In this document: in pieces, positions 38,930 through 57,515 of the stretch
How the letters are laid out: each line of letters starts with the position of its first letter
How positions within the stretch are numbered: the stretch's first letter is position 1
NCBI GenBank assembly: GCA_041671525.1
Contig: JBAZBJ010000001.1
Location: forward strand, 9,638 to 73,637
Reading direction: 5' to 3'
Length of the DNA stretch: 64,000 nt
Origin: Parcubacteria group bacterium
GTDB taxonomy: Bacteria > Patescibacteriota > Minisyncoccia > Moranbacterales > UBA2206
Translations under genes and position numbers: made by a program
The notes under the pieces: generated by a model
The model's database searches: none
Seen by the model: only the letters and a program-made list of their open reading frames with translations
Told to the model about the DNA's origin: nothing

Positions 38930-38985
38930 TACCAATTCGGCACAAAATACGCCCGTTGGCCCAAATTTGGCCAAATAACGGGTCC
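38930..38985 (+). repeat. inter-module repeat copy 1 (short form)
   Basis: Core cccgttggcccaaatttggccaaata (38952-38977) matches cores at 48889, 52336, 57487. Confidence 0.7.
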
Positions 38986-39105
38986 ATAAAAAGACTAGCC
39001 AATCAATGGGAATGGTGCAATAATAGTAATATGTATCGATGATTATTACTAAACAAAAAGCACTAACATTAGTACTTGCAATAAGATTTAAGGTGTTTAA
39101 AAAAT

Positions 39106-40887
39106 ATGGCAAATAACAAACAAAAACTAGAACTTACATGGATTGGAAAAGATAATTCTGAGTATGACATTGCCAACATTGAACCTCGTATTTTGGAAGA
39201 AAATGCAGACCTTTCTAATTGTGAGAAAGATCCCAACACTGAAAACATGATTATTCATGGGGATAACCTTCTTGCGCTTAAGGCACTCTTGCCAGAGTAT
39301 GAAGGCAAAATAAAATGTATCTATATGGATCCACCATATAATACTGGAAATGCATTTGAGCATTACGATGATAGTGTGGAACATAGTACATGGCTTTCTC
39401 TTATGAAGCCAAGATTGGAATTACTAAAAATGCTTTTGAGTGATGACGGAGTATTGTGCATACAATTAGATGATGTCGAGCAAGCTTATTTAAAAGTATT
39501 GCTTGATGAAGTATTCGGGCGATCAAATTTTATTAATCAAGTAAGTGTTAAAATGAAGCAGACGGCTGGCGCAAGTGGGGGCGGTGAAGATAAACGACTT
39601 AAAAAAAATATAGAGTACATATTAATTTATACAAAAAACTACCAAGCATTTCCAAAATTTAATGAGGTATTGGAAGAAGAAAATCTTTTTGATCTTATTA
39701 ATGAAATGAGAGATCAAGGTAAAAGTTGGAAATATACTAGGGTTTTTATGTCCATGGGGAGCCGTTCATTTTTCTCTGAAATACAGGACGGATCTGGATT
39801 ACCTATTAAAATTTACAAACACAGTGATGTTAAAATAAGTACCATACCTGAATTGATGAAAGCAGAGGGATTAACTGAAGAAGAAACTTACTTTAAATAT
39901 TTTGATAAAATATTTAGAGATACCAACGCTCAGAGTTCAATACGAACAAGGGTTATGGACGCAACAAAAGGCGCAGGGGATTTTTTTAGTATCGATTACG
40001 TTCCACGCTCGGGTAAATCTAAGGGTCAAACAGTAACCTCCTTTTACAAAGGCAATAATAGAGATTTAATTGCTTGGTTAAAGGATGTGGCAGTAAAGAA
40101 AAAAAATTCCATAGTAAAGCTAGAAAAACTTGGAACGTACTGGGAAGGTTTTCCTTTAAATAATTTAACGAAAGAGGGTGGAGTTTTATTCCCGAATGGC
40201 AAGAAGCCAGAAGCTCTAGTTCAAAGAATTTTGGACTTGATATCGAGTGAAGGCGATTTTGTACTCGATTCATTTCTTGGCTCAGGTACTACTACTGCAG
40301 TTGCGCATAAAACTGGAAGAAAGTATATAGGCATCGAAATGGGGGATCATGCATACACACATTGCAAAGTACGAATGGATAAGGTAATAGACGGATCGGA
40401 TCAAGGTGGTATAAGTAGAGCAGTCGAGTGGCAAGGTGGTGGTGGATATAAATTTTATGAACTGGCTCCAAGTTTTATTACTAAAGATGAATTTGGCAAT
40501 GCTGTAATTGATGTTTTTTATGATGATTCCAAACTCATCAAAGCAATGTGTAAGTTGATGAGCTTTGCTTATCAGCCAAGTAAAACAGAATATTGGAAAC
40601 ATGGTGTTGGGCAAGGAAAGAACTATCTTTATGTGACAACCCAACTTCTTACTAGTGGGATGATTCAACAAATTGCTGGACGTCTAACCGAAGGAGAGTC
40701 GTTGATTATTTGTCCCAAGAAATTTGAACCAGGTGCGGATAAAATTGATAGACGCATTACAATCAAAAAAATACCACAATCAATTTTAAAAGCATGTCAT
40801 TTTGGTAAAAAAGAATATCTACTTCCAATTAAAGAATCCGCTGTGGAAGAGATTGAAATTGAAGCGGAGGAAGATGATAACGAATAA
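39106..40887 (+). CDS. mod: Type III restriction-modification methyltransferase (Mod, N6-adenine, beta class)
   Basis: Motif IV CIYMDPPYNTG near N-terminus, motif I DSFLGSGTTTAVA near C-terminus; followed by overlapping res gene. Confidence 0.85.
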   Translation: MANNKQKLELTWIGKDNSEYDIANIEPRILEENADLSNCEKDPNTENMIIHGDNLLALKALLPEYEGKIKCIYMDPPYNTGNAFEHYDDSVEHSTWLSLMKPRLELLKMLLSDDGVLCIQLDDVEQAYLKVLLDEVFGRSNFINQVSVKMKQTAGASGGGEDKRLKKNIEYILIYTKNYQAFPKFNEVLEEENLFDLINEMRDQGKSWKYTRVFMSMGSRSFFSEIQDGSGLPIKIYKHSDVKISTIPELMKAEGLTEEETYFKYFDKIFRDTNAQSSIRTRVMDATKGAGDFFSIDYVPRSGKSKGQTVTSFYKGNNRDLIAWLKDVAVKKKNSIVKLEKLGTYWEGFPLNNLTKEGGVLFPNGKKPEALVQRILDLISSEGDFVLDSFLGSGTTTAVAHKTGRKYIGIEMGDHAYTHCKVRMDKVIDGSDQGGISRAVEWQGGGGYKFYELAPSFITKDEFGNAVIDVFYDDSKLIKAMCKLMSFAYQPSKTEYWKHGVGQGKNYLYVTTQLLTSGMIQQIAGRLTEGESLIICPKKFEPGADKIDRRITIKKIPQSILKACHFGKKEYLLPIKESAVEEIEIEAEEDDNE

Positions 40888-43711
40888 ACATATGATTCCA
40901 CAAGAAGCACTAAAATACATCAATGGCGCTATGAGTTTGCGTGCTCCACAAGTAAAAAGCTTAGAACTCTTTGCAAATTATTTGGAGTCACAATCTGGTC
41001 AGAAATTACTTGCACGCATGAAAAAGGAAACACGAGGTAATATTGCAGAGATTATGGCGGAAAGTAAAAAATATTTTAGTACTAAATCTGAAACCAAAGA
41101 ATTTGAAGAATTTGAGCGAGCTTTTCCTGCTTATACCCTTGCTTTAGCTACTGGCGTTGGAAAAACAAGATTAATGGGTGCTTTTGTGGCTTATTTATAT
41201 TTGGTTTATAACATACAGCATTTTTTAATCGTGGCACCAAACTTGACCATTTTCCGTAAACTACTTGAAGATTTTAGTAAGGCAAGTAATCCTAAGTATG
41301 TTTTTAAGGGTGTTCAGGAAATAAATCCGAATACTACAAAAATAATTACAACAGATAATTATACAAATCAGAGAGGAAAAACTCTTTTTGATAATCAGAT
41401 TGAAATCAATATTTTTAATATTCAACAATTTGCCCAGAAAGACATGACGAGTGAGCGTGGAATAACTAAAGCATGGGAAACTGCAGGTGAATCATATTTT
41501 GATTATTTGAAATCACATAATGATCTCGTGGTAATGCTAGACGAAGCTCATCACTATCATGCCGATGCTGCTCTTGGAGCATTGGATATACTCGACCCTC
41601 TCTTTGGCTTGGAAATGACCGCTACACCATATTTAGGCACGCGAGGTTCAGGGAAAAATGCAAGACAAATTAGAATGAAAAATGTTCTATATTCTTATAA
41701 TCTTGGTGATGCCATCAGGGGAAAATTAGTTAAGGATCCGTGGATAGGCACGGAGGCCGATGTGGATTTTGGTCAGTTTGATTCTGAATCAATTGAAACG
41801 GATGCGCGCAAGCTCCAATTGGCAGTATTTTTTCATGAGCGTGCAAAAAATGCATTGAGGGAATATGCATTGGAAAATAACGTGCCAAGAGTGAAACCAG
41901 TGTTATTAGTTGTTGCAAAAAACACTACTCACGCTGCAGAGTTGCGGGCCCTGATTGATAGTGATGATTTTCGCGGAGGAGAATTTAAGGGAAAAGTTAT
42001 TGAAATACATACTAAGCTTCATGGTGATGAAGCGGATGAAAATATTGAAAAATTAATTTCACTTGAACATCCTGATAACATAGTGGAAGTTGTGATTCAC
42101 GTTAACATGTTAAAAGAAGGATGGGATGTGACAAATGTCTATACGATTGCGCCATTGCGTGAATCTGCAGCTGCAATTTTAACTGAACAAACAATTGGGC
42201 GTGGATTGCGATTGCCATATGGAGAACGAACGGGAGTGCCATTAGTGGATAGACTAGTTCTTGTTGCTCATGAACAATTTGCTAAGGTTGTTGCACTTGC
42301 GAAAGATTCTCCATTGATCCAAGGTCAAGTAGAAGCAGTTTCAGAAGTAGAAGTCAAAGAAGTAAAAGTATTAACCGAGGTTCAATCGGTTGTTCTTGAT
42401 ACTGTTAAAGATGAAATAACTCACAACGAAGTAGTAATGGAAGAACTGCAAAAGAAAGCGGAAGAATTAGTTTCAGTCATTCCACGGATAGATGCAATGG
42501 ATATTGGTTTGCGAGAAAAATTTATTGCAACAAAAAAAGATGAATTAGTCGGAGACTTATCCAAGGAAACAATAAAAAATCTCACTTTTTCTAGCTATCA
42601 CGGTCAACAGTCTTCGCCAGCAAGTCCATCTTTTGTGACTGGGACTTTGTTTGGATCTTTTAGTGACGGAGCAAAAGATGAGCTTGCTAAAATTGCTCAA
42701 AAATCAGTAGAAACAATGGAGGAAAGAAATATTCCAATTCCGCGACTAACGATTACCCCACATTTTGGAGAACTTGTAATAAATTCATTTGACTTAGAAG
42801 CAAGTTTATTACATACATACACAAATGAACGTGCAATTCTTGAAGAGCAATTGCAAAATGATCGCGGAAAAAATTTGCTTGGCGAAGACGTTCCTGGGCG
42901 CCGAACGACAGAGATGACAAGGGTTAATAGTTTTGGTGCGAGCAATGGGCAAACTCCCCAAAGTGCTATTATTGGCGCGCTTTTAGATTTTCCATTAATA
43001 GATTATGATGATCCAAATCAAAAGGAATTATTGCTGAAATTGGCAGGACAGGCAGTGGGACATTATCGCTCAAAAGCGATTGATGAAGATAATCTGGCAT
43101 TGATTATTGATAGTAATGTCCACTCTATTGCTGAAGATATCAATAAACAAATTTTAGCACACCAAGAATTGAAATCTGAAAGTTATTTGGAATCTGAGGT
43201 GGAAGAACCAAAACCATATTTGGAGCAATATAATATTTCATTGTCCATTGGTGAAAAACCAGTTTCTCTTGAATCACAACTCAACACTTTTAGTGCTAAA
43301 TTTACTTACGGACAATTTCAAAGGGCATGTCATTCGATGTATCGCTTTGATTCTTCTGATGAAGTTCGATTAGCATATCTATTGGATAGTGATGAATCAG
43401 TGGAAGATTGGCTTCGACCAGCTCCGAACCAATTTGAGGGATTATATTGGCGTAATGTGGAGGGTGAATCGCACCGCTATGAACCTGATTTCGTTGTGGA
43501 ATTTGAAAGTGAGATAGTTATGATTGAAGTAAAGCCAGAATTAGAAATTCATGATTTAAGCGTGCAAGCAAAAAAACAAACTGCAGAAAAGTATTGTGAG
43601 GTAGTCAATAAGAATATTGGAAAGTTTGGGATAGTAAAGCCTTGGAGATATGTGATTATTCCAACGGAAAAAATTACAATCCAGTCGACAGTGGCAAGTT
43701 TAGCGATTTAA
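40874..43711 (+). CDS. res: Type III restriction enzyme Res subunit (SF2 helicase + C-terminal PD-(D/E)xK nuclease)
   Basis: Helicase motifs LATGVGKTR, MLDEAHHY, NMLKEGWDV, QTIGRGLRL; C-terminal YEPDFVVEFESEIVMIEVKPE; ATG 40874 overlaps mod stop by 14 nt (alternative ATG 40892). Confidence 0.85.
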   Translation: MITNKHMIPQEALKYINGAMSLRAPQVKSLELFANYLESQSGQKLLARMKKETRGNIAEIMAESKKYFSTKSETKEFEEFERAFPAYTLALATGVGKTRLMGAFVAYLYLVYNIQHFLIVAPNLTIFRKLLEDFSKASNPKYVFKGVQEINPNTTKIITTDNYTNQRGKTLFDNQIEINIFNIQQFAQKDMTSERGITKAWETAGESYFDYLKSHNDLVVMLDEAHHYHADAALGALDILDPLFGLEMTATPYLGTRGSGKNARQIRMKNVLYSYNLGDAIRGKLVKDPWIGTEADVDFGQFDSESIETDARKLQLAVFFHERAKNALREYALENNVPRVKPVLLVVAKNTTHAAELRALIDSDDFRGGEFKGKVIEIHTKLHGDEADENIEKLISLEHPDNIVEVVIHVNMLKEGWDVTNVYTIAPLRESAAAILTEQTIGRGLRLPYGERTGVPLVDRLVLVAHEQFAKVVALAKDSPLIQGQVEAVSEVEVKEVKVLTEVQSVVLDTVKDEITHNEVVMEELQKKAEELVSVIPRIDAMDIGLREKFIATKKDELVGDLSKETIKNLTFSSYHGQQSSPASPSFVTGTLFGSFSDGAKDELAKIAQKSVETMEERNIPIPRLTITPHFGELVINSFDLEASLLHTYTNERAILEEQLQNDRGKNLLGEDVPGRRTTEMTRVNSFGASNGQTPQSAIIGALLDFPLIDYDDPNQKELLLKLAGQAVGHYRSKAIDEDNLALIIDSNVHSIAEDINKQILAHQELKSESYLESEVEEPKPYLEQYNISLSIGEKPVSLESQLNTFSAKFTYGQFQRACHSMYRFDSSDEVRLAYLLDSDESVEDWLRPAPNQFEGLYWRNVEGESHRYEPDFVVEFESEIVMIEVKPELEIHDLSVQAKKQTAEKYCEVVNKNIGKFGIVKPWRYVIIPTEKITIQSTVASLAI

Positions 43712-43736
43712 AAATAGCAAAGAAAGATAAATAGTT

Positions 43737-44474
43737 ATGAATACATTCAAGCAATCAGCAATTGAAGTGCTGAAAAAAGCAGGAAAGCCTTTGCATTATA
43801 CTGAAATCACTCGGTTAGCTTTGGAATCGGGAATTTTGGAAACTGAGGGTGCAACGCCTGAATCTTCAATGAACGCCCAAATTACAGTAGATATCAAAAA
43901 CAAGGGCAAAGGCTCGGATTTCATGAAAACCGCACCCGGAACTTTTACACTTAATCATGATAAAAAAGAGGTAAAGCAAACACCTAAAATTATAGAAGCC
44001 GAAAAAGAGGCGGAAGAGAGGCTGGTAGTCGAAAGCGGATTCACCGGAAAAGGCGGAGAGCATCTGGTTTGCAGTGAACTTCTTTTTCGCGGTTTCAACG
44101 CTAGTATCATGAGTGTGGATGTCGGAATGGATATTGTGGCAGTAAAAGGAAATCAGCTCTTCGGAATACAGGTAAAAACTTCAAATCTGAATCGTTTCGA
44201 TACATATGTTTTTGATATTCGGAAAGTATCATTCGAGCGTCACAGTAGTGGCAGCATATTTTACATATTTGTTTTACATGGAGAAAAACAGAACCGTTTT
44301 TTGATTTTGCCTTTTCTTGAAATAGAAAAGAAGGTTCATGAAAAAGCAATATTGGAAGTGGGTCAAGGCAAGCGCTATCGTGTGAATATTAAATTCAGGA
44401 ATGATCATGTATATCTGGGGAACAAGGAACATGAAATGGGATATTTTTTGGATAACTGGAATTCGATAAAATAG
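43737..44474 (+). CDS. HARE-HTH domain fused to a PD-(D/E)xK-like nuclease domain
   Basis: N-terminus FKQSAIEVLKKAGKPLHYTEITRLALESG...TPESSMNAQITVDI...GTFTL (HARE-HTH pattern); C-terminal GEHLVCSELL...DVGMDIVAV...GIQVKTS. Confidence 0.55.
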   Translation: MNTFKQSAIEVLKKAGKPLHYTEITRLALESGILETEGATPESSMNAQITVDIKNKGKGSDFMKTAPGTFTLNHDKKEVKQTPKIIEAEKEAEERLVVESGFTGKGGEHLVCSELLFRGFNASIMSVDVGMDIVAVKGNQLFGIQVKTSNLNRFDTYVFDIRKVSFERHSSGSIFYIFVLHGEKQNRFLILPFLEIEKKVHEKAILEVGQGKRYRVNIKFRNDHVYLGNKEHEMGYFLDNWNSIK

Positions 44475-44526
44475 TTTTTAACAATGGAATAAATAGATTA
44501 TTGATATTCAGTGTAATTGAGGCGAT

Positions 44527-46536
44527 ATGATTAGTAATACTTCAAAATTAAAAATTTTTGGCATAATCAATGAGATCTTTCACAACAGATTCTTTTTATT
44601 AGTGTTTTTTGGTCTAATCTTTGTCTCGCTAAACTGGTTTTTTGTTGGAAATCTTTTTCCAGATCCTGATGTTTTAAACCTTTGGTTTTATTCGGGTATT
44701 TTTATGGTTTTATTTTCACTTCTTTTTATCGAGCCTTACTATACTTCTCCCAAAAATGTAATTACAAATGCCGTTCCATTATTACTTGTTTTTCTTTCAA
44801 TAAAAAGCAGTTTTGAAAATAAATTTCCATGGTGGCTTGCAATGACTATTCTTCTGTCGCTTCTAATTGCGTCAATAGTTGCGATTGCCTTAGAGGATAA
44901 AAACAAAAGCCCCGAACACAACAAAAATAAGATTGCCGAATGGTTAAAAAATTTTGTTGTTTTGTTTGGTCAAGGCAAAATTTTATATTCAGCAGTTTTC
45001 CTTTATTTTCTTTTTACGTATTATTCAACGCAAAACACCTATACATTAATTTTGCTTATCATTTGGTTTTTTATTTTAGCAATAGATCCAAAAAAGATAA
45101 AAAGCACATTTATTATAAATACCAAAGAATTATCTGAGAATGCAATCGGTGAAATTTTTGGTGTTCAATCCAAGAAGATTTTCCTGGTTAAACTTTTTGA
45201 TGATAGGAAGGGTATTTTGAAATTTGATATTGTTAAGTTTAGGTATTCAATGCAAGATTCAAATGATTTTTTAATGTCAGGTATTGTTTTTGATACGTAT
45301 CTGCTTAATCAAGAGAAATGGGCAAAGATTCTACAATTAGGCAAAATAGCAAAAAACAGCTCTGGTTCTGAAAAAAATGTTGTCTATAAAGTATCCGATA
45401 AGGAAGAAATCTCTACCTTAGAAAAAGAACTGCGTACAGACAATTTTGTAGGTATAGTGATTGAGGGTTCAAATATAGGAAAGATTAAATTTGAATACTC
45501 AAAAAAACAAGATGATCTACAAGAGGGAGATTTGGTTGAATTAAGAACCAATGGTAGAAGATTATTTTATCAAGTAGTTAATGGCGTCACTGAAAAAGAA
45601 AGTCTTGAACATCGAAATGAAACTGGTTTTATCAAGGGCGAGGCAATTCAACTCGGAGAATGGATAAATGACGAGCTGTCCTTTCAAAAGTATGGTTGGG
45701 TTCCATCTATTAATATCCCAATTTTTAAAGCGGATACGTCCGATATTGAGGTAAAAAGTTTTAAATATCCTGATTACAAACTCGGAATAATTCCGAATAC
45801 ATCATTGCCATCCGTTATTAATTTGGCTGATGCTGTTAGTCACCATATGGCACTTCTTGGGGTCACTGGATCAGGAAAATCTTTTCTTGCGCGCGAAATT
45901 ATAAATCAACTCAAGCAAGACACTAAGGTTATTTGCATTGATTTTACTGGTGAATGGGAAAAAGAATTGAATAAATATGATATCAAAAATACACTATTAG
46001 GTGGTGCGAATATTAATAATTTTTTGGAAAATGATGAAGGAAAAGTTGGTATTGTTGGATTGTCAGCCATGTCTAATACTTCTGAAGTAATACAGCAAAC
46101 AGAAAAACTATTTGAAACTATATTTAATTTTGCAAAAGAAAAATACAATCAAAACACGCCGGTTAAAATATCATTAGTACTCGAAGAGGCACACACTATT
46201 ACTCCGGAAACTTCCTTTTTGGGAGACCTTGGAGATTATGGATCCAATAAAGCTTTAGTTAATAAGATGAGTCAGGTTGCTTTGCAAGGAAGAAAATATG
46301 GAGTTGGAATGATGATTATTGCTCAAAGAACTGCAAATGTCTCCAAAACAGTTTTGACTCAATGCAACACAGTAATTTGTTTTCAAGCATTTGACGAAAC
46401 TAGTTTTAATTTCTTAGGAAACTATGTTGGCAAGGATCTTGTTTCAACTCTTCCAAATTTAAAACAATATCATGCAATTGTTACTGGCAAGGCAATAAAA
46501 TCAAATGTCCCTATGATTATTGATCTAAAAAGATAA
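44527..46536 (+). CDS. membrane-anchored HerA/FtsK-like (DUF87-type) ATPase
   Basis: About 6 N-terminal TM helices; Walker A LLGVTGSGKSF, Walker B ISLVLEEAH, MMIIAQRTANVSK...VICFQ typical of HerA-clade ATPases. Confidence 0.65.
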   Translation: MISNTSKLKIFGIINEIFHNRFFLLVFFGLIFVSLNWFFVGNLFPDPDVLNLWFYSGIFMVLFSLLFIEPYYTSPKNVITNAVPLLLVFLSIKSSFENKFPWWLAMTILLSLLIASIVAIALEDKNKSPEHNKNKIAEWLKNFVVLFGQGKILYSAVFLYFLFTYYSTQNTYTLILLIIWFFILAIDPKKIKSTFIINTKELSENAIGEIFGVQSKKIFLVKLFDDRKGILKFDIVKFRYSMQDSNDFLMSGIVFDTYLLNQEKWAKILQLGKIAKNSSGSEKNVVYKVSDKEEISTLEKELRTDNFVGIVIEGSNIGKIKFEYSKKQDDLQEGDLVELRTNGRRLFYQVVNGVTEKESLEHRNETGFIKGEAIQLGEWINDELSFQKYGWVPSINIPIFKADTSDIEVKSFKYPDYKLGIIPNTSLPSVINLADAVSHHMALLGVTGSGKSFLAREIINQLKQDTKVICIDFTGEWEKELNKYDIKNTLLGGANINNFLENDEGKVGIVGLSAMSNTSEVIQQTEKLFETIFNFAKEKYNQNTPVKISLVLEEAHTITPETSFLGDLGDYGSNKALVNKMSQVALQGRKYGVGMMIIAQRTANVSKTVLTQCNTVICFQAFDETSFNFLGNYVGKDLVSTLPNLKQYHAIVTGKAIKSNVPMIIDLKR

Positions 46537-46544
46537 TAGCTTAT

Positions 46545-48062: not shown

Positions 48063-48063
48063 T

Positions 48064-48798: not shown

Positions 48799-48829
48799 TG
48801 CTGCTTACCTGGATAAGCGAATATTCTGC

Positions 48830-48920: not shown

Positions 48921-48975
48921 GAAATCTTCAATTGTATTCAGGATAATATTTATTCGGGTCAATTTTATTTTTTTG

Positions 48976-48984
48976 TGGTATAAT
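48976..48984 (+). promoter_or_regulatory. extended -10 promoter element (TGgTATAAT)
   Basis: tggtataat about 40 nt upstream of the 49023 ATG. Confidence 0.5.
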
Positions 48985-49022
48985 TTAAAAAGATTTGTGA
49001 TGTGTATTAAGATAAGAATTTT

Positions 49023-49772
49023 ATGCCACCTAGTGAACGAAATACTAAAATTGTGATTACTGAATCGGGAAACAGATGCGCTTTTTCTTTTGGAAAAGAG
49101 ATTTGCAATGAGATTTTAGTAAAAGAAAATAATGGTGGAGGAGTTGCTTTTATCGGTGATATCGCCCATATAAAGGGTGAAAATGAGGGATCAGCTAGAT
49201 ATGATGAAAATATGGTCAAGGGGGATAGAAATAACTCCGAAAATCTTATGGTGTTGTGTAAAAATCATCATAAGACTATAGATGACCAAGAAGATGTTTA
49301 TACAGTCGAAGTATTATTGAAAATGAAAGACAATCATAGAAAATGGGTAATTGATAAAACCAATAAGGCACTTCCCGAAATAACGTTTATTGAACTTGCG
49401 ACTGTTACTCAATTTTTAATGAGAAACGCATCCCCAGTTGATGTCATAGAGGGAATTTGCCCCAAGGACAAAATTAAAAAGAATGGCTTGAGTGCTGAAG
49501 TTGAAAATCAAATCACGATGGGAATGTCTAGGGTGAGGCTTGTTCAAAATTATATAAGCCAATCACTGGATTCTGAATTCGGTGAAAAACTAAAGCAAGG
49601 ATTTATTACTGAATACGGCAGGTTAATATCTGATGAGAAACTTCAAGGAGATGATGTTTTCGATAGTTTGTTAGATTTTGCTTCAAACAGTAGTGGCGAC
49701 TTTAAGAATAGAGCTGCTGGACTCGCAGTTCTCACATATTTTTTTGAGCAATGTGATATTTTTGAAAAATGA
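49023..49772 (+). CDS. HNH endonuclease effector with C-terminal helical domain (ABC-3C-type effector)
   Basis: GDIAHIKGENEG...NNSENLMVLCKNHHKTID = H-N-H; first gene of a three-gene set ending with a DUF2326-like ATPase. Confidence 0.6.
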   Translation: MPPSERNTKIVITESGNRCAFSFGKEICNEILVKENNGGGVAFIGDIAHIKGENEGSARYDENMVKGDRNNSENLMVLCKNHHKTIDDQEDVYTVEVLLKMKDNHRKWVIDKTNKALPEITFIELATVTQFLMRNASPVDVIEGICPKDKIKKNGLSAEVENQITMGMSRVRLVQNYISQSLDSEFGEKLKQGFITEYGRLISDEKLQGDDVFDSLLDFASNSSGDFKNRAAGLAVLTYFFEQCDIFEK

Positions 49773-49990
49773 TTCTTCCAACAAAACACATACAAACAAA
49801 AAGATCACTTATTGGTATGGGAGCAGGGATACTATCTATGCTCGATAAGCCATATAATGTTTCTTCGTTATGGCACAGGGCTAAAAAGCTTCCAGAGGTA
49901 AGAACATTTGAAACGTTTGTGATAACGTTAGATTTTTTGTTTGCATTGGACGCCATAGGAATGGAAAATGGATTTATAAATAAAAAATAA
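49769..49990 (+). CDS. 73-aa middle component of the three-gene ABC-3C-type set
   Basis: Start overlaps upstream stop (ATGA); small helical protein between effector and ATPase. Confidence 0.5.
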   Translation: MILPTKHIQTKRSLIGMGAGILSMLDKPYNVSSLWHRAKKLPEVRTFETFVITLDFLFALDAIGMENGFINKK

Positions 49991-49996
49991 AAAAAG

Positions 49997-51748: not shown

Positions 51749-51769
51749 AAATAAAGACAAATCCAGAAA

Positions 51770-51797
51770 ACAAAAATACAGTCATTTTATTTGACTG
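51770..51797 (+). terminator. rho-independent terminator
   Basis: acagtca-ttttatt-tgactgt followed by TTTTTTT. Confidence 0.75.
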
Positions 51798-51820
51798 TTT
51801 TTTTATGTAGCACATAGTCA

Positions 51821-51849
51821 CATGCGAGTTGACTGCCAAGGCTTAAAAG
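51821..51849 (+). promoter_or_regulatory. sigma70-like promoter
   Basis: TTGACT (51821-51826), 17-nt spacer, TAGAAT (51844-51849). Confidence 0.6.
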
Positions 51850-52034
51850 GCTAGAATAAGGCTAACAATTGAATTGGCCTAAACCTTGCTTTTCGGTAAG
51901 GCATGGTCTGAAATCCATGAACATAATAACGGTCTTCTGATCGGTATCATGTTCATGGTCTTATCTCGAAAGGGATATGGGTAGCTCGCAAGGGTTGCCA
52001 CCGACGGGAGACCTTTTTTGTATTCAAAAAAACA

Positions 52035-52256
52035 ATGGATGATCAACGCAAAAGAAATTTGGAATTTCAAATGGATAGTGGGGAATTGCACGCACAGATG
52101 GCAACAGTGTTGAATTTGGTCAGGGAGGATGCGACTTCGAAAGGTTGGAATCAGAAACACGAAGAAATGCTCAGAGGAACCATCGAGGATCTGATGTTTA
52201 TACATGATCATTACAACCTGTTTTTCAAACCGAAAAAACATCAGAATTACGAATAA
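52035..52256 (+). CDS. hypothetical 73-aa protein downstream of a long structured leader
   Basis: ORF only; no motif. Confidence 0.35.
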   Translation: MDDQRKRNLEFQMDSGELHAQMATVLNLVREDATSKGWNQKHEEMLRGTIEDLMFIHDHYNLFFKPKKHQNYE

Positions 52257-52263
52257 TGGACTT

Positions 52264-52365
52264 TGCGCGATTTTGGCACATTTAAGCAAATTACAACCCT
52301 AGTGGCATATTTGATCGGACGAGGAGCAAAAACAGCTTGTAGGGCAGAATTTGGCGAAATACGGA
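52264..52365 (+). repeat. inter-module repeat copy 3
   Basis: Core cttgtagggcagaatttggcgaaata (52336-52361) and upstream tagtggcatatttgatcgg segment. Confidence 0.65.
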
Positions 52366-52509
52366 CAACCCTCGATGTTTTTTGATGGTTTTTCTAATTT
52401 TATATTTGACGAATAAAAGAGTCGAACTTTTTGAATGTGTTTGCTTGAATAAATCTAGGCTTAATGATATTATAAAATCAAGTAAAAAGGCCTAATATAT
52501 AGCAAAATT

Positions 52510-53154
52510 ATGAAATTGTTGCTGACATCCACAGGATTTACAAATCAAAAAATACGAGACTTTTTTGTTTCTCAATTTGACGCACTTGAAAATAAGAAAG
52601 CTTGCTTGATTTATACAATAAGACAGGAAGGTGATTGGCAGTGGGTTGAACGTTATGATAGCGAACTGAAAGAGATAGGCTTGCAATATGACGGTGTAAA
52701 TATTTCAGAGGAAAAAGATCTGTCTGATTTACAGGAATATGACATTTATTATGTTTGTGGCGGTAATACTTTTTACATACTTGGTAGACTTAGAAAAACT
52801 AACCTAGACAAGGTTATTTTGAAGGCGGTTGAAGAAGGAAAATTTTATGTTGGTGTGAGTGCAGGTTCTATTGTTGTAGGCCCTGATATTGAAGTTGCTG
52901 GGATTGGTGAAGGAGATGAAAATGACATCAATCTTTCTGATTTAAGCGGATTTAATTGGGTGCCCTTTCATATTTCTCCTCATTATACAGAACAAGACAA
53001 AAACGATGTTGAGGAATTTTATAATAAAAGAAAAGAATCACTAATAGCACTCACGGATGACCAAGCATTGTTTGTAACTGACAAAGAAGTGTTGCTTGTT
53101 GGAAATAAAGGCGTGACTGAGTTATCTGAACTTAATATTATAGACGAAGAATAA
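52510..53154 (+). CDS. peptidase S51 (dipeptidase E-like)
   Basis: MKLLLTSTGF, YVCGGNTFYIL, YVGVSAGSIV (nucleophile Ser), FHISPHY. Confidence 0.75.
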   Translation: MKLLLTSTGFTNQKIRDFFVSQFDALENKKACLIYTIRQEGDWQWVERYDSELKEIGLQYDGVNISEEKDLSDLQEYDIYYVCGGNTFYILGRLRKTNLDKVILKAVEEGKFYVGVSAGSIVVGPDIEVAGIGEGDENDINLSDLSGFNWVPFHISPHYTEQDKNDVEEFYNKRKESLIALTDDQALFVTDKEVLLVGNKGVTELSELNIIDEE

Positions 53155-53179
53155 TAAAAAATATAAATTTATTTCTATT

Positions 53180-53665
53180 ATGTTTGGAGAATCAAAAAAT
53201 ATTATACCGCTTGGAAAAGGACTTGAATTGCAAGAAAAAAAGGAGCAACAGAATGTCGAAAGTATAAGGGCTGGAATCGCTAATCTTCAAGATGGAAAAG
53301 AAAAATTTGAAGAGTGGCAAAGAATTGCTCTTGAGCATGGTGATGAGCAGAATGCTCTTCTGTATGAAGTTGAAGCACTCGAAAATGAAATGCTCATTAT
53401 GGAAGGTGAGATTCTTTGCAGCGAATCTGATATTATGCAAATTGAAAGATGGCAGCAACATTTCAGTCATGTGATGGATGTAGATAGTAAACGTGAAGCG
53501 GAAGAGCGTATTGATGACATTGATTCTGAACTGGAATTCATATCTGATTATTTGGATTCGTTGCTTGAGGACGTTAATGCTGACGAAATAAAAAAGCAAA
53601 AAATTCAAGAACTATTAAAGAAGAAAGAAAGGTTGGAGGTTGAGAGATTAAATTATTCTAAATAA
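53180..53665 (+). CDS. hypothetical acidic coiled-coil protein
   Basis: 161-aa E/Q/L-rich ORF. Confidence 0.4.
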   Translation: MFGESKNIIPLGKGLELQEKKEQQNVESIRAGIANLQDGKEKFEEWQRIALEHGDEQNALLYEVEALENEMLIMEGEILCSESDIMQIERWQQHFSHVMDVDSKREAEERIDDIDSELEFISDYLDSLLEDVNADEIKKQKIQELLKKKERLEVERLNYSK

Positions 53666-53670
53666 TAAAC

Positions 53671-54264
53671 ATGAAGACAATTATTTTTGATTTTGATGGT
53701 GTAATTCATGATACTTTTGAATTGGCATATAAAATTAACGTTGAGCTTTTTGGCAAGCAATTGACTGAAGAAAATTACAGAGATTTTTTCAATGGGAATA
53801 TTTTTGAAAGTGCAAAGGTTACCAAGGATGATAATGATAAATTTTTCAAATTGCAAAATGAAGCATTTAAGTATTTAAAGATAGACGAAAGTATTAAACA
53901 GCATCTAGAAAAATTAGCTGAAGAGTATTCATTGTTCATCATTTCTTCCAATCAAGAAGAGGCACTGGACACCTATTTTCAAAATAATAATTTCACTCAT
54001 ATCTTCAAGGAAATATTAGGAGCAGAAACGCATCAATCTAAAGTGGAAAAATTCAAGTATCTATTTGAGAAATATAACCTAGAGGCTGATGATTGTATTT
54101 TTGTTACAGATACGTTGGGTGATATATTGGAGGGCAATAAAGTAGGCGTCAGAACAATTGCGGTAGATTTTGGTTTTCACAAACGAGACAGACTTGAAAA
54201 GGGAAAACCTTTCAGGATAGTCTCAAGTTTTGATGAAATATTAGAAGTAATAAAAAACGTGTAA
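53671..54264 (+). CDS. HAD-superfamily hydrolase
   Basis: Motif I IIFDFDGVIHDT, motif II IISSN, motif IV FVTDTLGD. Confidence 0.75.
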   Translation: MKTIIFDFDGVIHDTFELAYKINVELFGKQLTEENYRDFFNGNIFESAKVTKDDNDKFFKLQNEAFKYLKIDESIKQHLEKLAEEYSLFIISSNQEEALDTYFQNNNFTHIFKEILGAETHQSKVEKFKYLFEKYNLEADDCIFVTDTLGDILEGNKVGVRTIAVDFGFHKRDRLEKGKPFRIVSSFDEILEVIKNV

Positions 54265-54267
54265 AAT

Positions 54268-54936
54268 ATGAAAATTAATATTGACCTAATTCCTAATAAT
54301 AAATCCCTCCCTAAGGAGGATTTAGAACTTGTTAGAAAAGTAATACTAAAACATGCCAAAAAAGTTGAAAGCATGTTACCTTTTAAGGTGCAGAATTTTA
54401 CTTTCACTGTGTATGCATGGGACAAGGATGGAATTGGTGCATTTACAAAGGCAGAAGATTGGGTACATATCAATATTAATTACGGGCAGTTAATAATCAA
54501 GGGAGTCCCTAATGAAAAACTTATAGATAAATTAATCTATATAATTTATCACGAGATGCACCATGCTTGTAGAGGATATGTAGGTTTTCTACCTAAAAAT
54601 GAGCAGCATATTTTAATCAGTTCTATAATCTCTGAAGGACTGGCTGACCATTTTGCAATCGAGCAATATCCAAGTAAAAATATTCTGGAAACTATAGGCT
54701 ATGATATGGCTGAGATTTCTTCATGGATTAAAAAACTAGGAAAAGTCTTATGGAATAAGGAAAGCGATGACGATTCGTGGTTATTTGGTGGAAAGGAAAA
54801 ACCAAAATTACTCGGATATAAAATTGGCAGATATATAATTCAAGAAGTTAAAGAAAAGCAACCAAAGTTAAATTCAATCAATTTAATAAGTACAAGTTCC
54901 GAAAAGATTCTCAAATTGAGCGGAATTAATTTCTAA
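54268..54936 (+). CDS. predicted zinc-dependent protease-like protein (DUF2268-like)
   Basis: IIYHEMHHACRG HExxH motif, SEGLADHF downstream. Confidence 0.5.
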   Translation: MKINIDLIPNNKSLPKEDLELVRKVILKHAKKVESMLPFKVQNFTFTVYAWDKDGIGAFTKAEDWVHININYGQLIIKGVPNEKLIDKLIYIIYHEMHHACRGYVGFLPKNEQHILISSIISEGLADHFAIEQYPSKNILETIGYDMAEISSWIKKLGKVLWNKESDDDSWLFGGKEKPKLLGYKIGRYIIQEVKEKQPKLNSINLISTSSEKILKLSGINF

Positions 54937-54949
54937 TAATTCAAAAAAT

Positions 54950-55417
54950 ATGAATGATATAAAAATCAGAAAAGCTGGTGAAGAAGATTTTCCTGCTGTA
55001 TTTTCTTTGATAAAGGAACTTGCTGTTTTTGAAAAGTGTCCAGAAAAGGTCACAAATTCTGTTGAACAAATGAAAAATGAAAAGGATTTTTTCCAGTGCC
55101 ATGTGGCTGAGAATGGCAGCAAAGAGATTGTAGGCATGACCGTGTTCTTTTTTTCTTATCATACATGGGTTGGCAAGTCATTGTATTTTGATGATTTATA
55201 TGTGAAAGAAACTTATAGAGGTAAACAAATAGGTAAAAAATTACTTGCAAAAATCTTTGAAATTGCAAAAGAGGAAAATTGCAAAAGAATAAGTTGTTTG
55301 GTTTCAGAATGGAATAATCCTGCGATTGAGTTATATAAAAAATATGGCGTTTACATTGATTCTGGGTCAAAAAGTTTTAATTTTGATGAAGGTGGCATTA
55401 AGAATTTCAAATTATAA
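54950..55417 (+). CDS. GNAT-family N-acetyltransferase
   Basis: 155 aa; acetyl-CoA loop YRGKQIGKKLL; IRKAGEEDFPAVFSLI N-terminus. Confidence 0.8.
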   Translation: MNDIKIRKAGEEDFPAVFSLIKELAVFEKCPEKVTNSVEQMKNEKDFFQCHVAENGSKEIVGMTVFFFSYHTWVGKSLYFDDLYVKETYRGKQIGKKLLAKIFEIAKEENCKRISCLVSEWNNPAIELYKKYGVYIDSGSKSFNFDEGGIKNFKL

Positions 55418-55510
55418 TGCAATTTGATATGAAGTAATGTGCCAAACATTTACGATATAAAATAAACGTAGGCGCTGATTTGTTTTCGAATAACAATAGA
55501 AATCAACAAT

Positions 55511-56608
55511 ATGAACAAACAAGAAACAATGGGTTACAAAATAGCAAACACGGAAAGTTCTGAAAAAGAAAAAGATGCAGAACAACAAATATTAAATGCT
55601 CTATCGCATGAGTATGGTCTTTCAGTTCTGAAATTTCTCAAAGAGCCAGAAAAGGGAATAAGTTCCAAGAACTTGATCGTTTCCTCTAAAGACGGCAGTA
55701 GTTACTTTATTAAATGTTTTAAAAAAGCTGATGCTGAGAGAGTTAATGTTTCAGAAAATGCAGCATGCTTTATTGGTGAAAATTCAGATTTGCCAGTAGT
55801 GCTTCCCTTGAAAAATAAAGAAGGTGGATTGCACGTTGTTATTGATGGTCAAACGTATTCAATTTTCCCTAACATACCCCATGTTCAATATTCCCCCGAA
55901 TCAGCGTCTGAGTGGGTTGAGCTTTCAAGAAATCTCGGGCAGTTCTTGGGAAAAATTCATTTAGTTTCTCAGAAGACAGAAATTCCCGAAACGATAGAAA
56001 TGATTTCAAGATGGACCCCGGATGATCCAAAGGAAGCGATTGCTATATATGAAAAAATAAAAAGTATAATTGAACGCAAAACAACCACAGATGAATATGA
56101 TCAGAAGGCACTTGAATTTATCCAATTAAAAACTGATTTGATTGCACAAAATGAATTTACAAAAAGAGACCAACAGCCCCTTGTTGTTTGTCATGGTGAT
56201 TACCACAAAGACAATCTGCTTTTAAATGAGCAAGGAGAAATAACTGGAATTTGTGATTGGGATATAAGCGGCAAGGCGAATCCTTATGTCGAATTTGTTA
56301 GGTCTTTTAGTATGTGCGTTATCAGGAGGGATTTTGATAATTTGCAGGACAAAAAAGAAATGGCGAAAGCTTTTCTGGATGGTTACAGAAGTAACTGTGG
56401 ATTTGTTTTCAATGTTGAAGAATTGAAATACGCAATAGAATCTTGGTATCAAAAATTGCTAACGTCTCCGTGGCCACTTCCTGAGCATTATTATTCTTTA
56501 GGTGATGCTAATAAAACTGATAATATATTATACTCAGAATATAAAAAGGTGATTTTCCTTCGTGATAGGAGAAATGAGCTTCTTGATTTAATTTGTTCTT
56601 GCTTATAA
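55511..56608 (+). CDS. aminoglycoside/homoserine-kinase-type phosphotransferase (APH family)
   Basis: Catalytic loop VVCHGDYHKDNLLL and ICDWD metal-binding motif. Confidence 0.75.
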   Translation: MNKQETMGYKIANTESSEKEKDAEQQILNALSHEYGLSVLKFLKEPEKGISSKNLIVSSKDGSSYFIKCFKKADAERVNVSENAACFIGENSDLPVVLPLKNKEGGLHVVIDGQTYSIFPNIPHVQYSPESASEWVELSRNLGQFLGKIHLVSQKTEIPETIEMISRWTPDDPKEAIAIYEKIKSIIERKTTTDEYDQKALEFIQLKTDLIAQNEFTKRDQQPLVVCHGDYHKDNLLLNEQGEITGICDWDISGKANPYVEFVRSFSMCVIRRDFDNLQDKKEMAKAFLDGYRSNCGFVFNVEELKYAIESWYQKLLTSPWPLPEHYYSLGDANKTDNILYSEYKKVIFLRDRRNELLDLICSCL

Positions 56609-56721
56609 TGCATCATAAATATGAATAAATCACAAGTATCTAGCCCAGAGGAAAGAATTAGATATGCAGAAGAATTGAAAAAATACTAAGCTGGTAATAA
56701 TAAGCAACTAACATAAAAACA

Positions 56722-57033
56722 ATGAAAAAAACAATCATTCTTTTGGGGAGTATCTTTTTAATAACTTCTTTAAATAGATTGTTGTTGGCAATAATTATCT
56801 TGCCAATTATCTACTTTGTTTATAAGGGAAACAAAAAGGCGATGATTCTTGCTGGCATATATTCAGGTATTTTAACGATTGTGAATATAGCAGTTTATAT
56901 TGAAAATAATCGTAATGAGCAGGGCGACTTTTATTCCAGTCTAATGCCAGCTTATATTTATTTAGGTCTGTATATTTTAGCTTTAGTTTTTCTGAAAAAA
57001 TCTTATAAAGCAGAAAAGTTAAAAAAGGTATAA
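56722..57033 (+). CDS. small membrane protein (3 TM)
   Basis: 103-aa hydrophobic ORF. Confidence 0.45.
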   Translation: MKKTIILLGSIFLITSLNRLLLAIIILPIIYFVYKGNKKAMILAGIYSGILTIVNIAVYIENNRNEQGDFYSSLMPAYIYLGLYILALVFLKKSYKAEKLKKV

Positions 57034-57050
57034 TTTTTTATTTAAAACAG

Positions 57051-57329
57051 ATGGAAAATCAAAAAGCGATACAAAATGAATCTTTTATGGATAAAATCAA
57101 AAGTATTCATTGGATTGTTCAGATTATAATTTTTGGCGGATTGCTCTCGCTTATTTTTTCTGGGGATTTTAAGAATTTGGCAGGGGCTATGCTTATTTTG
57201 TCTTTGTATTCCGCCTATTCCTTGTTTAGACCATCTCTCAAAAATAGAAGATTGTTTTATCTTCTTCTTGCAGTGATATCGTTTATCAGTGTCTTTGTTT
57301 TAATAGCTATCGGACAATTATTGGCTTAG
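57051..57329 (+). CDS. small membrane protein (3 TM)
   Basis: 92-aa hydrophobic ORF. Confidence 0.45.
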   Translation: MENQKAIQNESFMDKIKSIHWIVQIIIFGGLLSLIFSGDFKNLAGAMLILSLYSAYSLFRPSLKNRRLFYLLLAVISFISVFVLIAIGQLLA

Positions 57330-57411
57330 GAGTTAAATGTTTTGTTTAACGAATCTCCAAAAAATAATCATCAGAAATGGTGACCTTCATGTTTTTTTGG
57401 AAATATTTTGA

Positions 57412-57515
57412 GTCCGCAAAATTCGGACGTTTCAGTGGGGAGTCGGATATTGTGGTACAGTTTACCGAATGAGACCCCAATAGACGCGTGTTGGACGAAA
57501 TTTGGGCTTGTTCGG
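57412..57515 (+). repeat. inter-module repeat copy 4 (most diverged)
   Basis: ttgtggtacagtttaccgaatgagacc and cgtgttggacgaaatttgggcttgt align with copies 2 and 3. Confidence 0.55.

Follow-up and report, generated by a model that had tools for sequence, protein, structure and literature searches.

A degenerate intergenic repeat, 75–100 nt long, that stands before consecutive operons of a bacterial genomic island is probably, to judge from its sequence, a composite regulatory cassette: in essence, a portable promoter unit placed before accessory, mostly defence, operons (rough probability 0.55). The window, by which we mean the whole 64,000-nt stretch of DNA that was analysed, carries four copies of this element, all on the same strand. 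Promoters and gene regulation are, to our knowledge, poorly understood in the Candidate Phyla Radiation (CPR), whose members cannot be grown alone. The element offers a concrete, testable cis-regulatory unit that is found across at least seven families of Moraniibacteriota and is associated with operons for accessory and defence functions. The chromosomal hotspot that it marks adjoins a terminase remnant and is a place where restriction-modification, ABC-3C, HerA-like and DGR-linked systems accumulate and are exchanged.

Copies of the element and the gene blocks between them

The four same-orientation repeats described in the first-pass annotation of this DNA are all there, on the + strand at the positions listed below, and the upstream segment that it assigned to copies 2–4 proved real when we checked the sequence. 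Its spacing also holds, with 129, 109, 149 and 86 nt between the end of the core and the next start codon for copies 1–4, respectively, and the block contents that it named agree with Pfam annotation. The conserved operon, the copies and the blocks are arranged as follows.

34462..38868, + strand: conserved operon, found ahead of the first copy in each of the six islands
34462/34570-35241, + strand: OmpR-type response regulator gene, in the conserved operon
35415-36917, + strand: histidine kinase gene, in the conserved operon; absent from three islands
36907-38868, + strand: gene for a cyclase-like protein of 653 aa, in the conserved operon
38912..38985, + strand: copy 1, core cgcccgttggcccaaatttggccaaata; AATTTGG at 38964-38970
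39106..48798, + strand: cargo block 1, type III restriction-modification (Mod, Res), HARE-HTH, HerA-like ATPase, DUF2779, DUF4145
48848..48922, + strand: copy 2, between the DUF4145 gene and the ABC-3C operon; AATTTGG at 48901-48907
49023..52256, + strand: cargo block 2, ABC-3C system, LOOT RNA, 73-aa ORF
49023-51748, + strand: ABC-3C system, in cargo block 2
51876-51999, + strand: LOOT RNA (Rfam), beside copy 3 and outside it
52035-52256, + strand: 73-aa ORF, in cargo block 2
52294..52368, + strand: copy 3, directly 3′ of the unit of LOOT RNA and 73-aa ORF, before the enzyme operon; AATTTGG at 52348-52354
52510..57329, + strand: cargo block 3, S51 peptidase, HAD, DUF2268, GNAT, APH-type kinase, two small ORFs
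57444..57520, + strand: copy 4, before the vWA / DGR-target / AAA operon; AATTTGG at 57499-57505
57598..63513, + strand: cargo block 4, vWA protein, DGR target, small protein, AAA_5 ATPase with DGR variable region

The intergenic gap that holds each copy is 220–270 nt long, and gaps within blocks are mostly shorter than 60 nt; copy 1 begins 44 nt past the stop codon of the cyclase-like gene. Pairwise identity among the four copies is 45–66%, with AATTTGG (7 nt) as their only invariant stretch. The repeat nevertheless stands well clear of chance: allowing up to three mismatches, GGCNNAAATTTGGCGAAATA has 3 sites against 0.18 expected, and 0 of 100 shuffles reached 3. An nhmmer profile built from the four copies and run against the whole 1.18 Mb assembly returned just these four (E values of 2e-15 to 4e-17), the next-best match having an E value of 0.38, and all four exact matches to GTNGGNCNNAATTTGG in the genome fall in this island. 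The core is therefore confined to this island, rather than being spread through the genome irrespective of modules. A repeat at every module boundary, as the first-pass annotation had it, is too strong a statement. We found no copy at the boundary between the phage-like module and the two-component system (34196-34461), at that between ABC-3C and LOOT RNA (51749-51875), or in the region after 63513.

The island lies in a CPR chromosome, with SecA, MurB and YceG flanks, and the only phage-type genes near it are RepO-like, methylase, TerS and TerL genes, with no structural genes. All island copies sit in the variable stretch that separates the cyclase-like gene from a conserved 176-aa/255-aa/YceG flank. 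The host of the window's element is a Candidatus Moraniibacteriota (Patescibacteria/CPR) bacterium. We rejected a dispersed repeat of the MITE or REP type, as there are four copies only, all within 19 kb and on one strand.

A promoter consensus at a fixed distance from the core

Across 17 copies of the element, the conserved core CGCCCGT..GGGCGAAATTTGGCGAAATA lies 19–21 nt upstream of TTTACT-N17-TAAAAT in 9–10, copy 4 among them; TTTACT-17-TAnnAT is found 19–21 nt past the core in nine, and TTTAAA occupies that register in a tenth. The 17-nt spacers between the hexamers are unrelated in sequence (TAGAAGTCATTTTGCGA, TTACGGTCGTTTGGGAG, CCGCGACCGAATAAGAG, GGAAGATTTATTTTTGC and TTGGAGCCCGTAAAGAG). 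Hexamers and spacer length are thus kept while spacer sequence is not, which is the pattern expected of a working promoter. An operator or promoter-proximal element was one of three readings put forward by the first-pass annotation and is the best supported of them, given a sigma-70-type promoter at a fixed register in these 9–10 copies from several families. In the window, the candidate promoters are the following.

38996..39024, + strand: promoter-like site after copy 1, TAGCCA-17-AATAAT with TG; 25 nt past the core and off the canonical register
48976..48984, + strand: extended −10 (TGGTATAAT) after copy 2; about 70 nt past the core
52445..52473, + strand: promoter-like site after copy 3, TTGAAT-17-TATTAT with TG; about 90 nt past the core
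57526..57554, + strand: predicted promoter of copy 4, TTTACT at 57526-57531, 17-nt spacer, TAAAAT at 57549-57554; 20 nt past the core

The register of the copy 4 promoter is also kept in copies of 8–9 other loci. In copies 1–3, a canonical −35/−10 pair is absent at the fixed register and the best promoter-like sites lie 11–90 nt past the core; with the distance so variable, the core cannot act at a fixed distance there. A sequence similar to the extended −10 of copy 2, CTGTGGTATAATT, occurs downstream of related copies in L130 and G162. A general promoter scan of the region gave 66 sites against 74 expected from shuffled sequence, and in view of this lack of excess, consensus matches alone are weak evidence. 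A sigma-54 reading of TGGC..N..TTGGC, made by eye, was discarded, the GG/GC dinucleotides being lost in G021_1, G014 and copy 4.

In the portable promoter unit that we propose, a full cassette would run from a variable leader of 40–50 nt (in which copies that come after the cyclase-like gene have a small GC hairpin), through a short GC inverted repeat (CGCCC-GTGT-GGGCG), an A/T-rich tandem repeat (GGCGAAAT-TT-GGCGAAATA) with a period of 10–11 bp and a stretch that is first G-rich and then T-rich, to a sigma-70-type promoter, TTTACT-N17-TA(A/T)AAT, placed 19–21 nt past AATTTGG. Transcription of the downstream operon would start a few bases past the −10, at about 57561 for copy 4. For the conserved 35–50 nt, which lie at about −45 to −95, we infer a role as upstream promoter element or as binding site of a factor; the same stretch may also attenuate read-through from the preceding operon. 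The four window copies would be old paralogues heading four consecutive operons of a hypervariable island, with copy 4 presumably keeping the canonical promoter and copies 1–3 only the upstream core, their other promoter-like sites lying further downstream. Recurring over about 70 nt in direct orientation, the copies also serve as end-points for the gain or loss of whole operons, an event seen once, between near-identical contigs.

If the conserved stretch binds a factor, one candidate is encoded in the island itself. The core could be the operator of the island's OmpR-type response regulator, so that one two-component system would switch all four cargo operons, with tandem GGCGAAAT half-sites at about −65 and −54 binding a head-to-tail dimer. 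The regulator gene lies 3.5–4.5 kb upstream of the first copy in six of six islands, and its product, at 79–89% identity, is among the best-conserved proteins. The core is a direct repeat with a period of 10–11 bp at a position typical of class I activators, TTTACCGAA is found in both copy 2 and copy 4, and, upstream of the regulator gene itself, a TATAAT is preceded by three TTTAC boxes spaced 11 bp apart. These boxes, however, are unlike the core GGCGAAAT. Moreover, G162, G310 and G112 have the element and no full-length OmpR-type homologue of the regulator, G196 and G189 have regulator relatives of 45% only, and G007 has a 58% homologue and no element. The three element-bearing genomes that lack a full-length homologue weaken the case for the island's response regulator as the binding factor, and we consider this assignment improbable.

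The element might instead work through the structure of its DNA or RNA, be it a single-strand hairpin like that of attC, an intrinsic terminator or a small structured RNA. Two short GC inverted repeats are present in its consensus, CGCCC-GTGT-GGGCG and, with a T-rich run after it, GCCCGT...ACGGGC; 72–79% of their cells are paired, and single-sequence folds of G021_2, L130_1, G087_1 and G087_2 take an A-tract / stem / U-tract shape. RNAalifold, however, found zero consensus pairs on either strand, and the fold energies of the four window copies (DNA, both strands) equalled those of shuffles (z of −0.6 to +1.1). For the two named helices, assessed in 16 copies, paired cells and covariation likewise equalled shuffled controls, and unpaired substitutions were uncompensated. 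Without compensatory changes or excess folding energy, the inverted repeats leave a terminator or attenuator role unsupported. Rfam gave no match at the element sites, its sole match in the window being the LOOT RNA. On the RNAalifold, shuffle, covariation and Rfam results, we rejected a structured RNA or hairpin and regard a structure-based function in general as very unlikely.

Distribution of the element and exchange of blocks

At least 11 further genomes of the order also carry the element. Six genomes have their first copy 44–47 nt past the conserved response-regulator/cyclase-like operon, where it adjoins a phage-derived TerS/TerL module and opens a variable region of 10–40 kb that is rich in restriction-modification and other defence genes. 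Copy 1 of the window is orthologous to the first copy of five other islands; besides the window's, islands with the element are those of G021, G076, G084, G087 and G095/G178, and the cargo downstream of their first copy varies. Five further families of the order have single copies, and near these lies no gene for TerL, a response regulator or the cyclase-like protein; they are again upstream of co-directional operons, one of them a type I restriction-modification operon. In three of these further-family copies (G310, G196 and G189), TTTAC(T/C/A)-N17-TAnnAT is found at the same register. A cos/pac site or an iteron, as might be suggested by the TerS/TerL and RepO-like genes nearby, was rejected because single copies occur without these genes.

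Scans of sequence collections used a 20-nt pattern whose matches are mostly due to chance. Among genomes, 4 of 16 matches were true copies (three known islands and the new L039), and all five viral matches were limited to the pattern itself. Among the 80 metagenome loci listed, six held eight true copies, of which only L130 and its duplicate L070 were new; L070 is identical to L130 in this region and does not count as an independent event. Eight IMG/VR contigs with the TerL module had no copy within 10 kb.

Copies 1, 2 and 3 have closer relatives in other genomes than in their own, among them G095_1 (79%), G087_2 (74%) and L130_2 (68%), respectively. Each window copy is closer to a relative in another genus than to the copies of its own genome, indicating long-term selection rather than decay. 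Similarly, G021_M2 and G095_M2 share 91% identity over 78 nt between flanks that are unrelated on both sides, and where their similarity ends this comparison showed neither terminal inverted repeats nor duplications. The element is maintained while its surroundings change.

Such relationships bear on the proposal that the repeats are neutral, decaying scars left by serial integrations: att remnants or, as the first-pass annotation suggested, duplicated minus-strand gene 3′ ends. The copies are indeed degenerate, and the minus-strand translations of copies 2–4, compared by eye, give loosely related peptides ending in stops. Yet nhmmer searches of the 1.18 Mb genome yielded neither an intact source gene nor a fifth copy, and the window contains no tRNA or tmRNA gene that could have served as an integration target. 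Indels of 1 nt (GT/GTG before TGG) break the frame within the supposed coding core, conserved positions form contiguous blocks, AATTTGG and CGCCCGT for example, with no period of three, and the closest relatives of each copy lie in other genera or families. The decayed gene ends were accordingly abandoned, and we judge a scar origin extremely unlikely. Tandem accretion of islands at an att site was rejected as well: AATTTGG alone is invariant, and there is no shared integrase.

That blocks can come and go between copies is seen in one comparison of relatives, between G076 and the near-identical contig of G095. G076 has the layout cyclase-M-MTase, and G095 has cyclase-M1-(HsdM-like 536 aa, 1024 aa, HARE-HTH)-M2-(235, 823, 370 aa)-M3-MTase, where M denotes a copy of the element. 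The two differ by an 11.2-kb, two-operon segment bounded exactly by copies M1 and M3. The single G076 copy is a chimera, as positions 19498-19564 align to both M1 and M3, with M1 on the left and M3 on the right.

This indel raises the question of whether the element is a dedicated site-specific recombination site, with operon-sized cassettes cut and inserted at the core and stacked behind the cyclase-like gene, and with the promoter as a passenger. The recombinase would then be island-encoded, host Xer-like or unrecognised, in the manner of integron or pdif modules. The exact absence of two G095 blocks between copies and the chimeric nature of the lone G076 copy are consistent with such a site, and M1 and M3, at about 75% identity with a longest exact match of about 13 nt, make a poor RecA substrate. 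The near-identity of G021_M2 and G095_M2 between unrelated DNA points the same way, as do the inverted arms GCCCGT...ACGGGC that flank the core in the consensus. Similarity is lost at nearly the same point, just after CGAAATA, in 7 of the 17 copies, and this shared end could instead mark a preferred crossover site. Recombinase genes lie close to some copies: the G014 copy is immediately 5′ of a tyrosine recombinase gene, the islands of G000 and G021 have a tyrosine recombinase at their right end, and the G196 and G112 copies are in regions with integrase genes.

Against this, the loci with the element have no recombinase in common. Only two of the six islands carry the 303-aa tyrosine recombinase, whose occurrence in the family is sporadic; integrase linkage of the element was rejected for this reason, and the conserved module has no recombinase-like gene. 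The absence of an integrase from the window, reported by the first-pass annotation, is correct within those limits; a tyrosine recombinase gene, the only one near the island, lies about 1.6 kb beyond the right end (contig C1:75249-76157), about 8 kb past copy 4, but none is consistently linked to the element. The G076 junction falls 5′ of the core whereas the recurrent loss of similarity falls 3′ of it, so that the two do not define one crossover point. In the same islands, many mosaic breakpoints fall elsewhere than at the element (the HARE-HTH single-gene patch, the DUF2779 patch and the 823+370 aa pair), and the single copies of other families are not in arrays. Finally, one polymorphism was found, and deletion between direct repeats accounts for the G076/G095 difference equally well. 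Of the cassette recombination site that had been suggested, the presence or absence of blocks exactly between copies thus stands, in one near-identical pair, but a hairpin, a fixed crossover and a consistently linked recombinase do not, and we hold a dedicated recombination site to be rather unlikely.

A more far-reaching version, which we consider unlikely and speculative, makes the element the site of an unrecognised cassette-accretion system of CPR bacteria, in which promoter-bearing defence operons would be excised as circles and inserted, at the conserved core, behind a fixed 'landing' gene. Such a system would resemble integrons but would use double-stranded, promoter-carrying sites, with a host Xer-like recombinase or a protein of the conserved module. 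Were the element a true recombination site, it would represent a new kind of cassette system.

Likeness to known systems

The closest known analogue of the putative promoter cassette is the PeSL (promoter-early stem-loop) cassette of T4-like phages, for which promoter and terminator activity and mini-circles were shown experimentally (Arbiol et al. 2010, PMC2839356; Comeau et al. 2014, PMC4122927). The element, like a PeSL, is a small composite intergenic motif in which a sigma-70-type promoter, here a predicted one, is combined with a GC inverted repeat and with A/T-rich sequence lying upstream of the −35 (PMC2839356, PMC4122927). Shared, too, are direct-orientation repeats before variable, mostly accessory genes in hyperplastic regions, and indels between close relatives that are bounded by copies, an expression signal coinciding with an exchange point. 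Because its context is a CPR chromosome and not the genome of a T4-like phage, we classify the element as an analogue of PeSLs rather than a member. Whereas PeSLs reside in a lytic phage genome, number about 50 and bound single ORFans, the element resides in a chromosomal island beside a terminase remnant, has 1–4 copies per genome and bounds multi-gene operons of 3–10 kb. Its conserved part lies mainly upstream of the −35, and its tandem GGCGAAAT core is absent from PeSLs; its stem-loop is short and without covariation support. If the cassette is both an expression driver and an exchange point, it would extend the PeSL principle from T4-like phages to cellular genomes of minimal gene content and provide a simple marker for new accessory operons in these genomes.

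Integron attC sites are similar in that repeats of one orientation separate successive gene units, many for defence, with the first copy fixed beside conserved genes. However, attC is a structure-defined imperfect hairpin with R''/R' core sites, is promoterless and depends on an adjacent IntI, whereas the element has no hairpin signal, includes a promoter among its predicted parts and has no recombinase next to copy 1.

Short sites also flank modules in the pdif modules of Acinetobacter plasmids and in Xer-dependent integrating elements, which are gained and lost without a module-encoded recombinase. Sites of the dif type measure 28 bp and consist of a 6-bp spacer flanked by two inverted arms of 11 bp each. 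The element resembles pdif modules in that short recurring sites flank discrete accessory modules, but its core is a direct repeat without dif architecture and all copies have one orientation. Lambdoid phages, for their part, have boundary (linker) sequences, which are short conserved patches of intergenic homology at module junctions that serve modular exchange. Those linkers are phage-to-phage homologies, whereas the element, with its predicted promoter, is found in cellular genomes of several families.

Four intergenic copies between gene blocks

Aligning the four copies of the degenerate intergenic direct repeat, hereafter the element, placed all of them on the plus strand at the positions reported by the first-pass annotation, and Pfam assignments agreed with the block contents that it had described.

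Element copies and adjoining gene blocks (Pfam)
38912-38985, plus strand: copy 1, preceded by a response regulator, histidine kinase and cyclase-like protein; followed by type III R-M, HARE-HTH, HerA-like ATPase, DUF2779 and DUF4145
48848-48922, plus strand: copy 2, followed by an ABC-3C system
52294-52368, plus strand: copy 3, followed by S51 peptidase, HAD, DUF2268, GNAT and APH-type kinase
57444-57520, plus strand: copy 4, followed by a vWA protein, DGR target and AAA_5 ATPase

About 75 nt are common to the aligned copies, with the strongest conservation at C.C..GT.GG.C..AATTTGG; a 20-nt pattern allowing up to three mismatches occurs at 3 sites against 0.18 expected. The first-pass annotation had proposed searching the whole genome for this core, and a four-copy profile run against the 1.18-Mb assembly (window, C1:9638-73637) matched only these four copies (E 2e-15 to 4e-17; next E 0.38). 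Each lies in a gap of 220–270 nt between runs of co-directional, closely packed genes. The observation of the element is confirmed. The copies do mark block boundaries, but not every one: 34196-34461, 51749-51875 and the region beyond 63513 have none. A dispersed MITE-type repeat was rejected, with only four copies, on one strand, within 19 kb.

Pairwise identity among the four copies is only 45–66%, and closer relatives of each exist outside the genome, including the orthologous first copy in G095 (79% to copy 1), the second copy in G087 (74% to copy 2) and the second copy on metagenome contig L130 (68% to copy 3). The second copies of G021 and G095 are 91% identical over 78 nt, with unrelated DNA on either side. 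The copies thus appear to be old paralogues under selection rather than decaying scars, and with closer relatives in other genomes a neutral scar is highly improbable. The earlier suggestion of decayed duplicates of a gene end, left by serial integrations, did not hold: the profile search revealed no source gene or fifth copy in the assembly, the window contains no tRNA, the supposed coding core is interrupted by one-nucleotide indels, and conservation falls in contiguous blocks.

A role through nucleic-acid structure is very unlikely. RNAalifold returned zero consensus pairs on either strand, single-strand DNA folds of both strands equalled shuffled sequence, and an Rfam scan gave no match at the copies (the sole match, LOOT RNA at 51876-51999, adjoins copy 3). 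Across 16 copies (nine genomes plus one metagenome contig), covariation at two consensus inverted repeats (CGCCC-GTGT-GGGCG and GCCCGT...ACGGGC) was no higher than in shuffled controls. The alignment, folding and Rfam results ruled out a structured RNA or attC-type hairpin.

Variable islands in related genomes

A sequence-only covariance model detected the element in 7 of 71 family genomes, one of them (G013) by a weak partial match (E 0.004); G095 (alias G178) gave four copies with the same model. One layout is common to six genomes (the window's own, G000, and G021, G076, G084, G087 and G095), in which the first copy opens a variable island; the six islands hold 4, 2, 2, 1, at least 1 and 4 copies.

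Common order of the islands and their flanks
Step 1: SecA
Step 2: phage-derived module (RepO-like, C5 methylase, ParB-methylase, TerS, TerL, 71-75 aa ORF)
Step 3: OmpR-type response regulator, a kinase in some, and a 650-730 aa cyclase-like protein
Step 4: element, 44-47 nt past the stop of the cyclase-like gene
Step 5: unrelated cargo, 10-40 kb
Step 6: conserved flank of 176-aa and 255-aa genes on the opposite strand, then YceG

Among island genomes TerL is ~90% identical versus ~71–74% for SecA, and within the family TerL occurs in 5 of 71 genomes, all element-bearing. Eight IMG/VR contigs with the TerS/TerL module have no element copy within 10 kb; YceG follows the module within ~2 kb in five, and in the other three, flank-gene homologues (255-aa and 176-aa) surround it. 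This adjacency of module and flank genes, with no element, argues that the segment from regulator to cargo is an insertion or hotspot. In the window the phage-type module spans 26499-34195 (RepO-like, C5 methylase, ParB-methylase, TerS, gpA-type TerL with ~90% identity across genera, 75-aa ORF), with capsid, portal and tail genes all absent; the terminal ORF is positioned like lambda gpW but matches no family. Several CPR lineages have it at one shared chromosomal position (SecA ... YceG), such contigs being listed as viral by IMG/VR; it is perhaps a packaging module that has been domesticated or is satellite-like.

An order-wide search recovered single copies in five further families (G162, G310, G196, G112 and G189), none with TerL, the regulator or the cyclase-like gene nearby. 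In G162, G310, G196 and G189 the copy has a co-directional operon 3' of it, which in G196 is type I R-M. LOOT RNA (Rfam RF03000, 80 bits) with a small ORF lacking a Pfam match (51876-52256) is a recurrent unit of these islands, directly 5' of an element copy in G000, G087, G095 and G310 and of a degenerate copy in G084, and not directly 5' of the element in G021 or G112.

A predicted promoter downstream of the core

We anchored 17 copies on AATTTGG. Nine carry TTTACT, a 17-nt spacer and a TA(A/T)AAT-like hexamer, beginning 19–21 nt past the core, and a tenth has TTTAAA at the canonical register; TTTAC(T/C/A)-17-TAnnAT is likewise in register in G310, G196 and G189. The hexamers and their spacing are conserved while the spacer sequences are unrelated, as would be the case for a functional sigma-70-type promoter, which we predict for the 3' part of the element. 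Similarity between orthologous first copies ends right after the -10, at the start of the cargo. Of the readings in the first-pass annotation, the promoter-proximal one is the best supported. Copy 4 is among the nine; copies 1–3 retain the upstream core alone and have their best promoter-like sites 11–90 nt past it.

Predicted promoter and promoter-like sites
57526-57531 and 57549-57554, plus strand: TTTACT and TAAAAT of copy 4, canonical register
38996-39024, plus strand: promoter-like site, copy 1
48976-48984, plus strand: promoter-like site, copy 2
52445-52473, plus strand: promoter-like site, copy 3

Judged from sequence, the likeliest identity of the element is a reusable promoter cassette that serves accessory operons (probability about 0.55). 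In its core, GG(N)CGAAAT is repeated in tandem with a 10–11 bp period, around positions -69 to -49 from the inferred start, an arrangement that suggested the OmpR-type regulator of the island as binder. That the element is this regulator's operator is nevertheless improbable, because element-bearing G162, G310 and G112 lack a full-length homologue and the TTTAC boxes ahead of the regulator gene are unlike the core. The core could possibly have a UP-element-like role. The ~370 nt of non-coding DNA 5' of the response-regulator gene (34196-34569) are conserved in five islands; they begin with three TTTAC boxes spaced 11 bp apart, then TATAAT, and include further conserved blocks (for example, AGAAAATACTC..CGAGTGCGCGCCTTTCTTTG), possibly a long structured leader, with no Rfam match.

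Gene-by-gene mosaicism and possible recombination between copies

Strain-level presence or absence of blocks bounded by the repeat, a comparison proposed in the first-pass annotation, was seen once. G076 and G095 have near-identical flanks (96–100% amino-acid identity), with the order cyclase-M-methylase in G076 and cyclase-M1-[HsdM-like 536 aa, 1024 aa, HARE-HTH]-M2-[235, 823, 370 aa]-M3-methylase in G095 (M, element copy). By BLASTN, G076 19498-19564 matches both M1 and M3, and in alignment this copy is M1-like on the left and M3-like from about CGCCCGTG rightwards. The difference can be read as a cassette insertion or deletion between direct repeats; either way, the copies delimit at least one operon-scale indel. 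M1 and M3 are ~75% identical and share no long exact match, so in this one event RecA-dependent exchange is not obviously favoured. The G095 contig concerned (L039, contig C2) is labelled 'uncultured Bdellovibrionales' and assigned to another family than G076, but the housekeeping proteins that it encodes share 96–100% identity with those on contig C30 of G076. A mis-binned contig in one of these two bins is probable.

The hybrid copy and the low M1/M3 identity would suit a dedicated recombination site, as would two tyrosine recombinase genes: one immediately 3' of the G014 copy, which is not in such an island, and another at the island's right end, ~1.6 kb beyond the window.

C1:75249-76157: 303-aa tyrosine recombinase, Phage_integrase and SAM-like N-terminal domain

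An orthologue occupies the equivalent position in G021 but is absent at the other four islands, the family is sporadic, and no recombinase common to all element loci was found. Several genomes (G090, G074 and G011) have 3–5 paralogues grouped on a single contig. Further breakpoints within these islands do not coincide with the element: the HARE-HTH gene alone is shared by G000 and G095 (88% nucleotide identity), the DUF2779 gene alone (46545-48062) by the window and G087 (85%), and the left neighbours of the 823 + 370 aa pair differ between G095 and L130. The HARE-HTH patch (43737-44474) spans exactly the gene length. Such single-gene patches amid otherwise unrelated cargo represent gene-by-gene mosaicism inside defence operons. 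One indel bounded by copies supports the cassette-site reading of the first-pass annotation in part, and we regard a dedicated site as unlikely.

Dif-like sites have an 11-6-11 inverted architecture that the element lacks, and were ruled out; attC sites were ruled out because the element has no hairpin or IntI and carries a predicted promoter. The closest known match is the PeSL cassette of T4-like phages, a small composite motif that joins a stem-loop to a strong sigma-70 promoter with A/T-rich sequence ahead of it, concentrated in hyperplastic regions 5' of variable genes, where recombination between copies yields indels and mini-circles (PMC2839356, PMC4122927). The element resembles it in make-up, placement and link to indels, but it lies on a CPR chromosome, differs in copy number and in how large the bounded units are, has a GGCGAAAT core and lacks support for a functional stem-loop.

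Elsewhere in the assembly, fifteen short contigs (C17-C22, C24-C32) have 28–36% G+C versus 42–48% in the main contigs, consistent with the bin's 8.8% contamination estimate. A 39-nt palindrome (AAAGACACCCAGTGTCCTTTTGGACACTGGGTGTCCAAA) occurs twice in identical form (16167-16205 and 17296-17334), with two weaker ones at 15464 and 15687; together they flank an IS200-like Y1 transposase gene (15522-16160) and a 363-aa ORF (16186-17277), and the region they bound (15464-17334) resembles an IS200/IS605-type element that terminates in hairpins.
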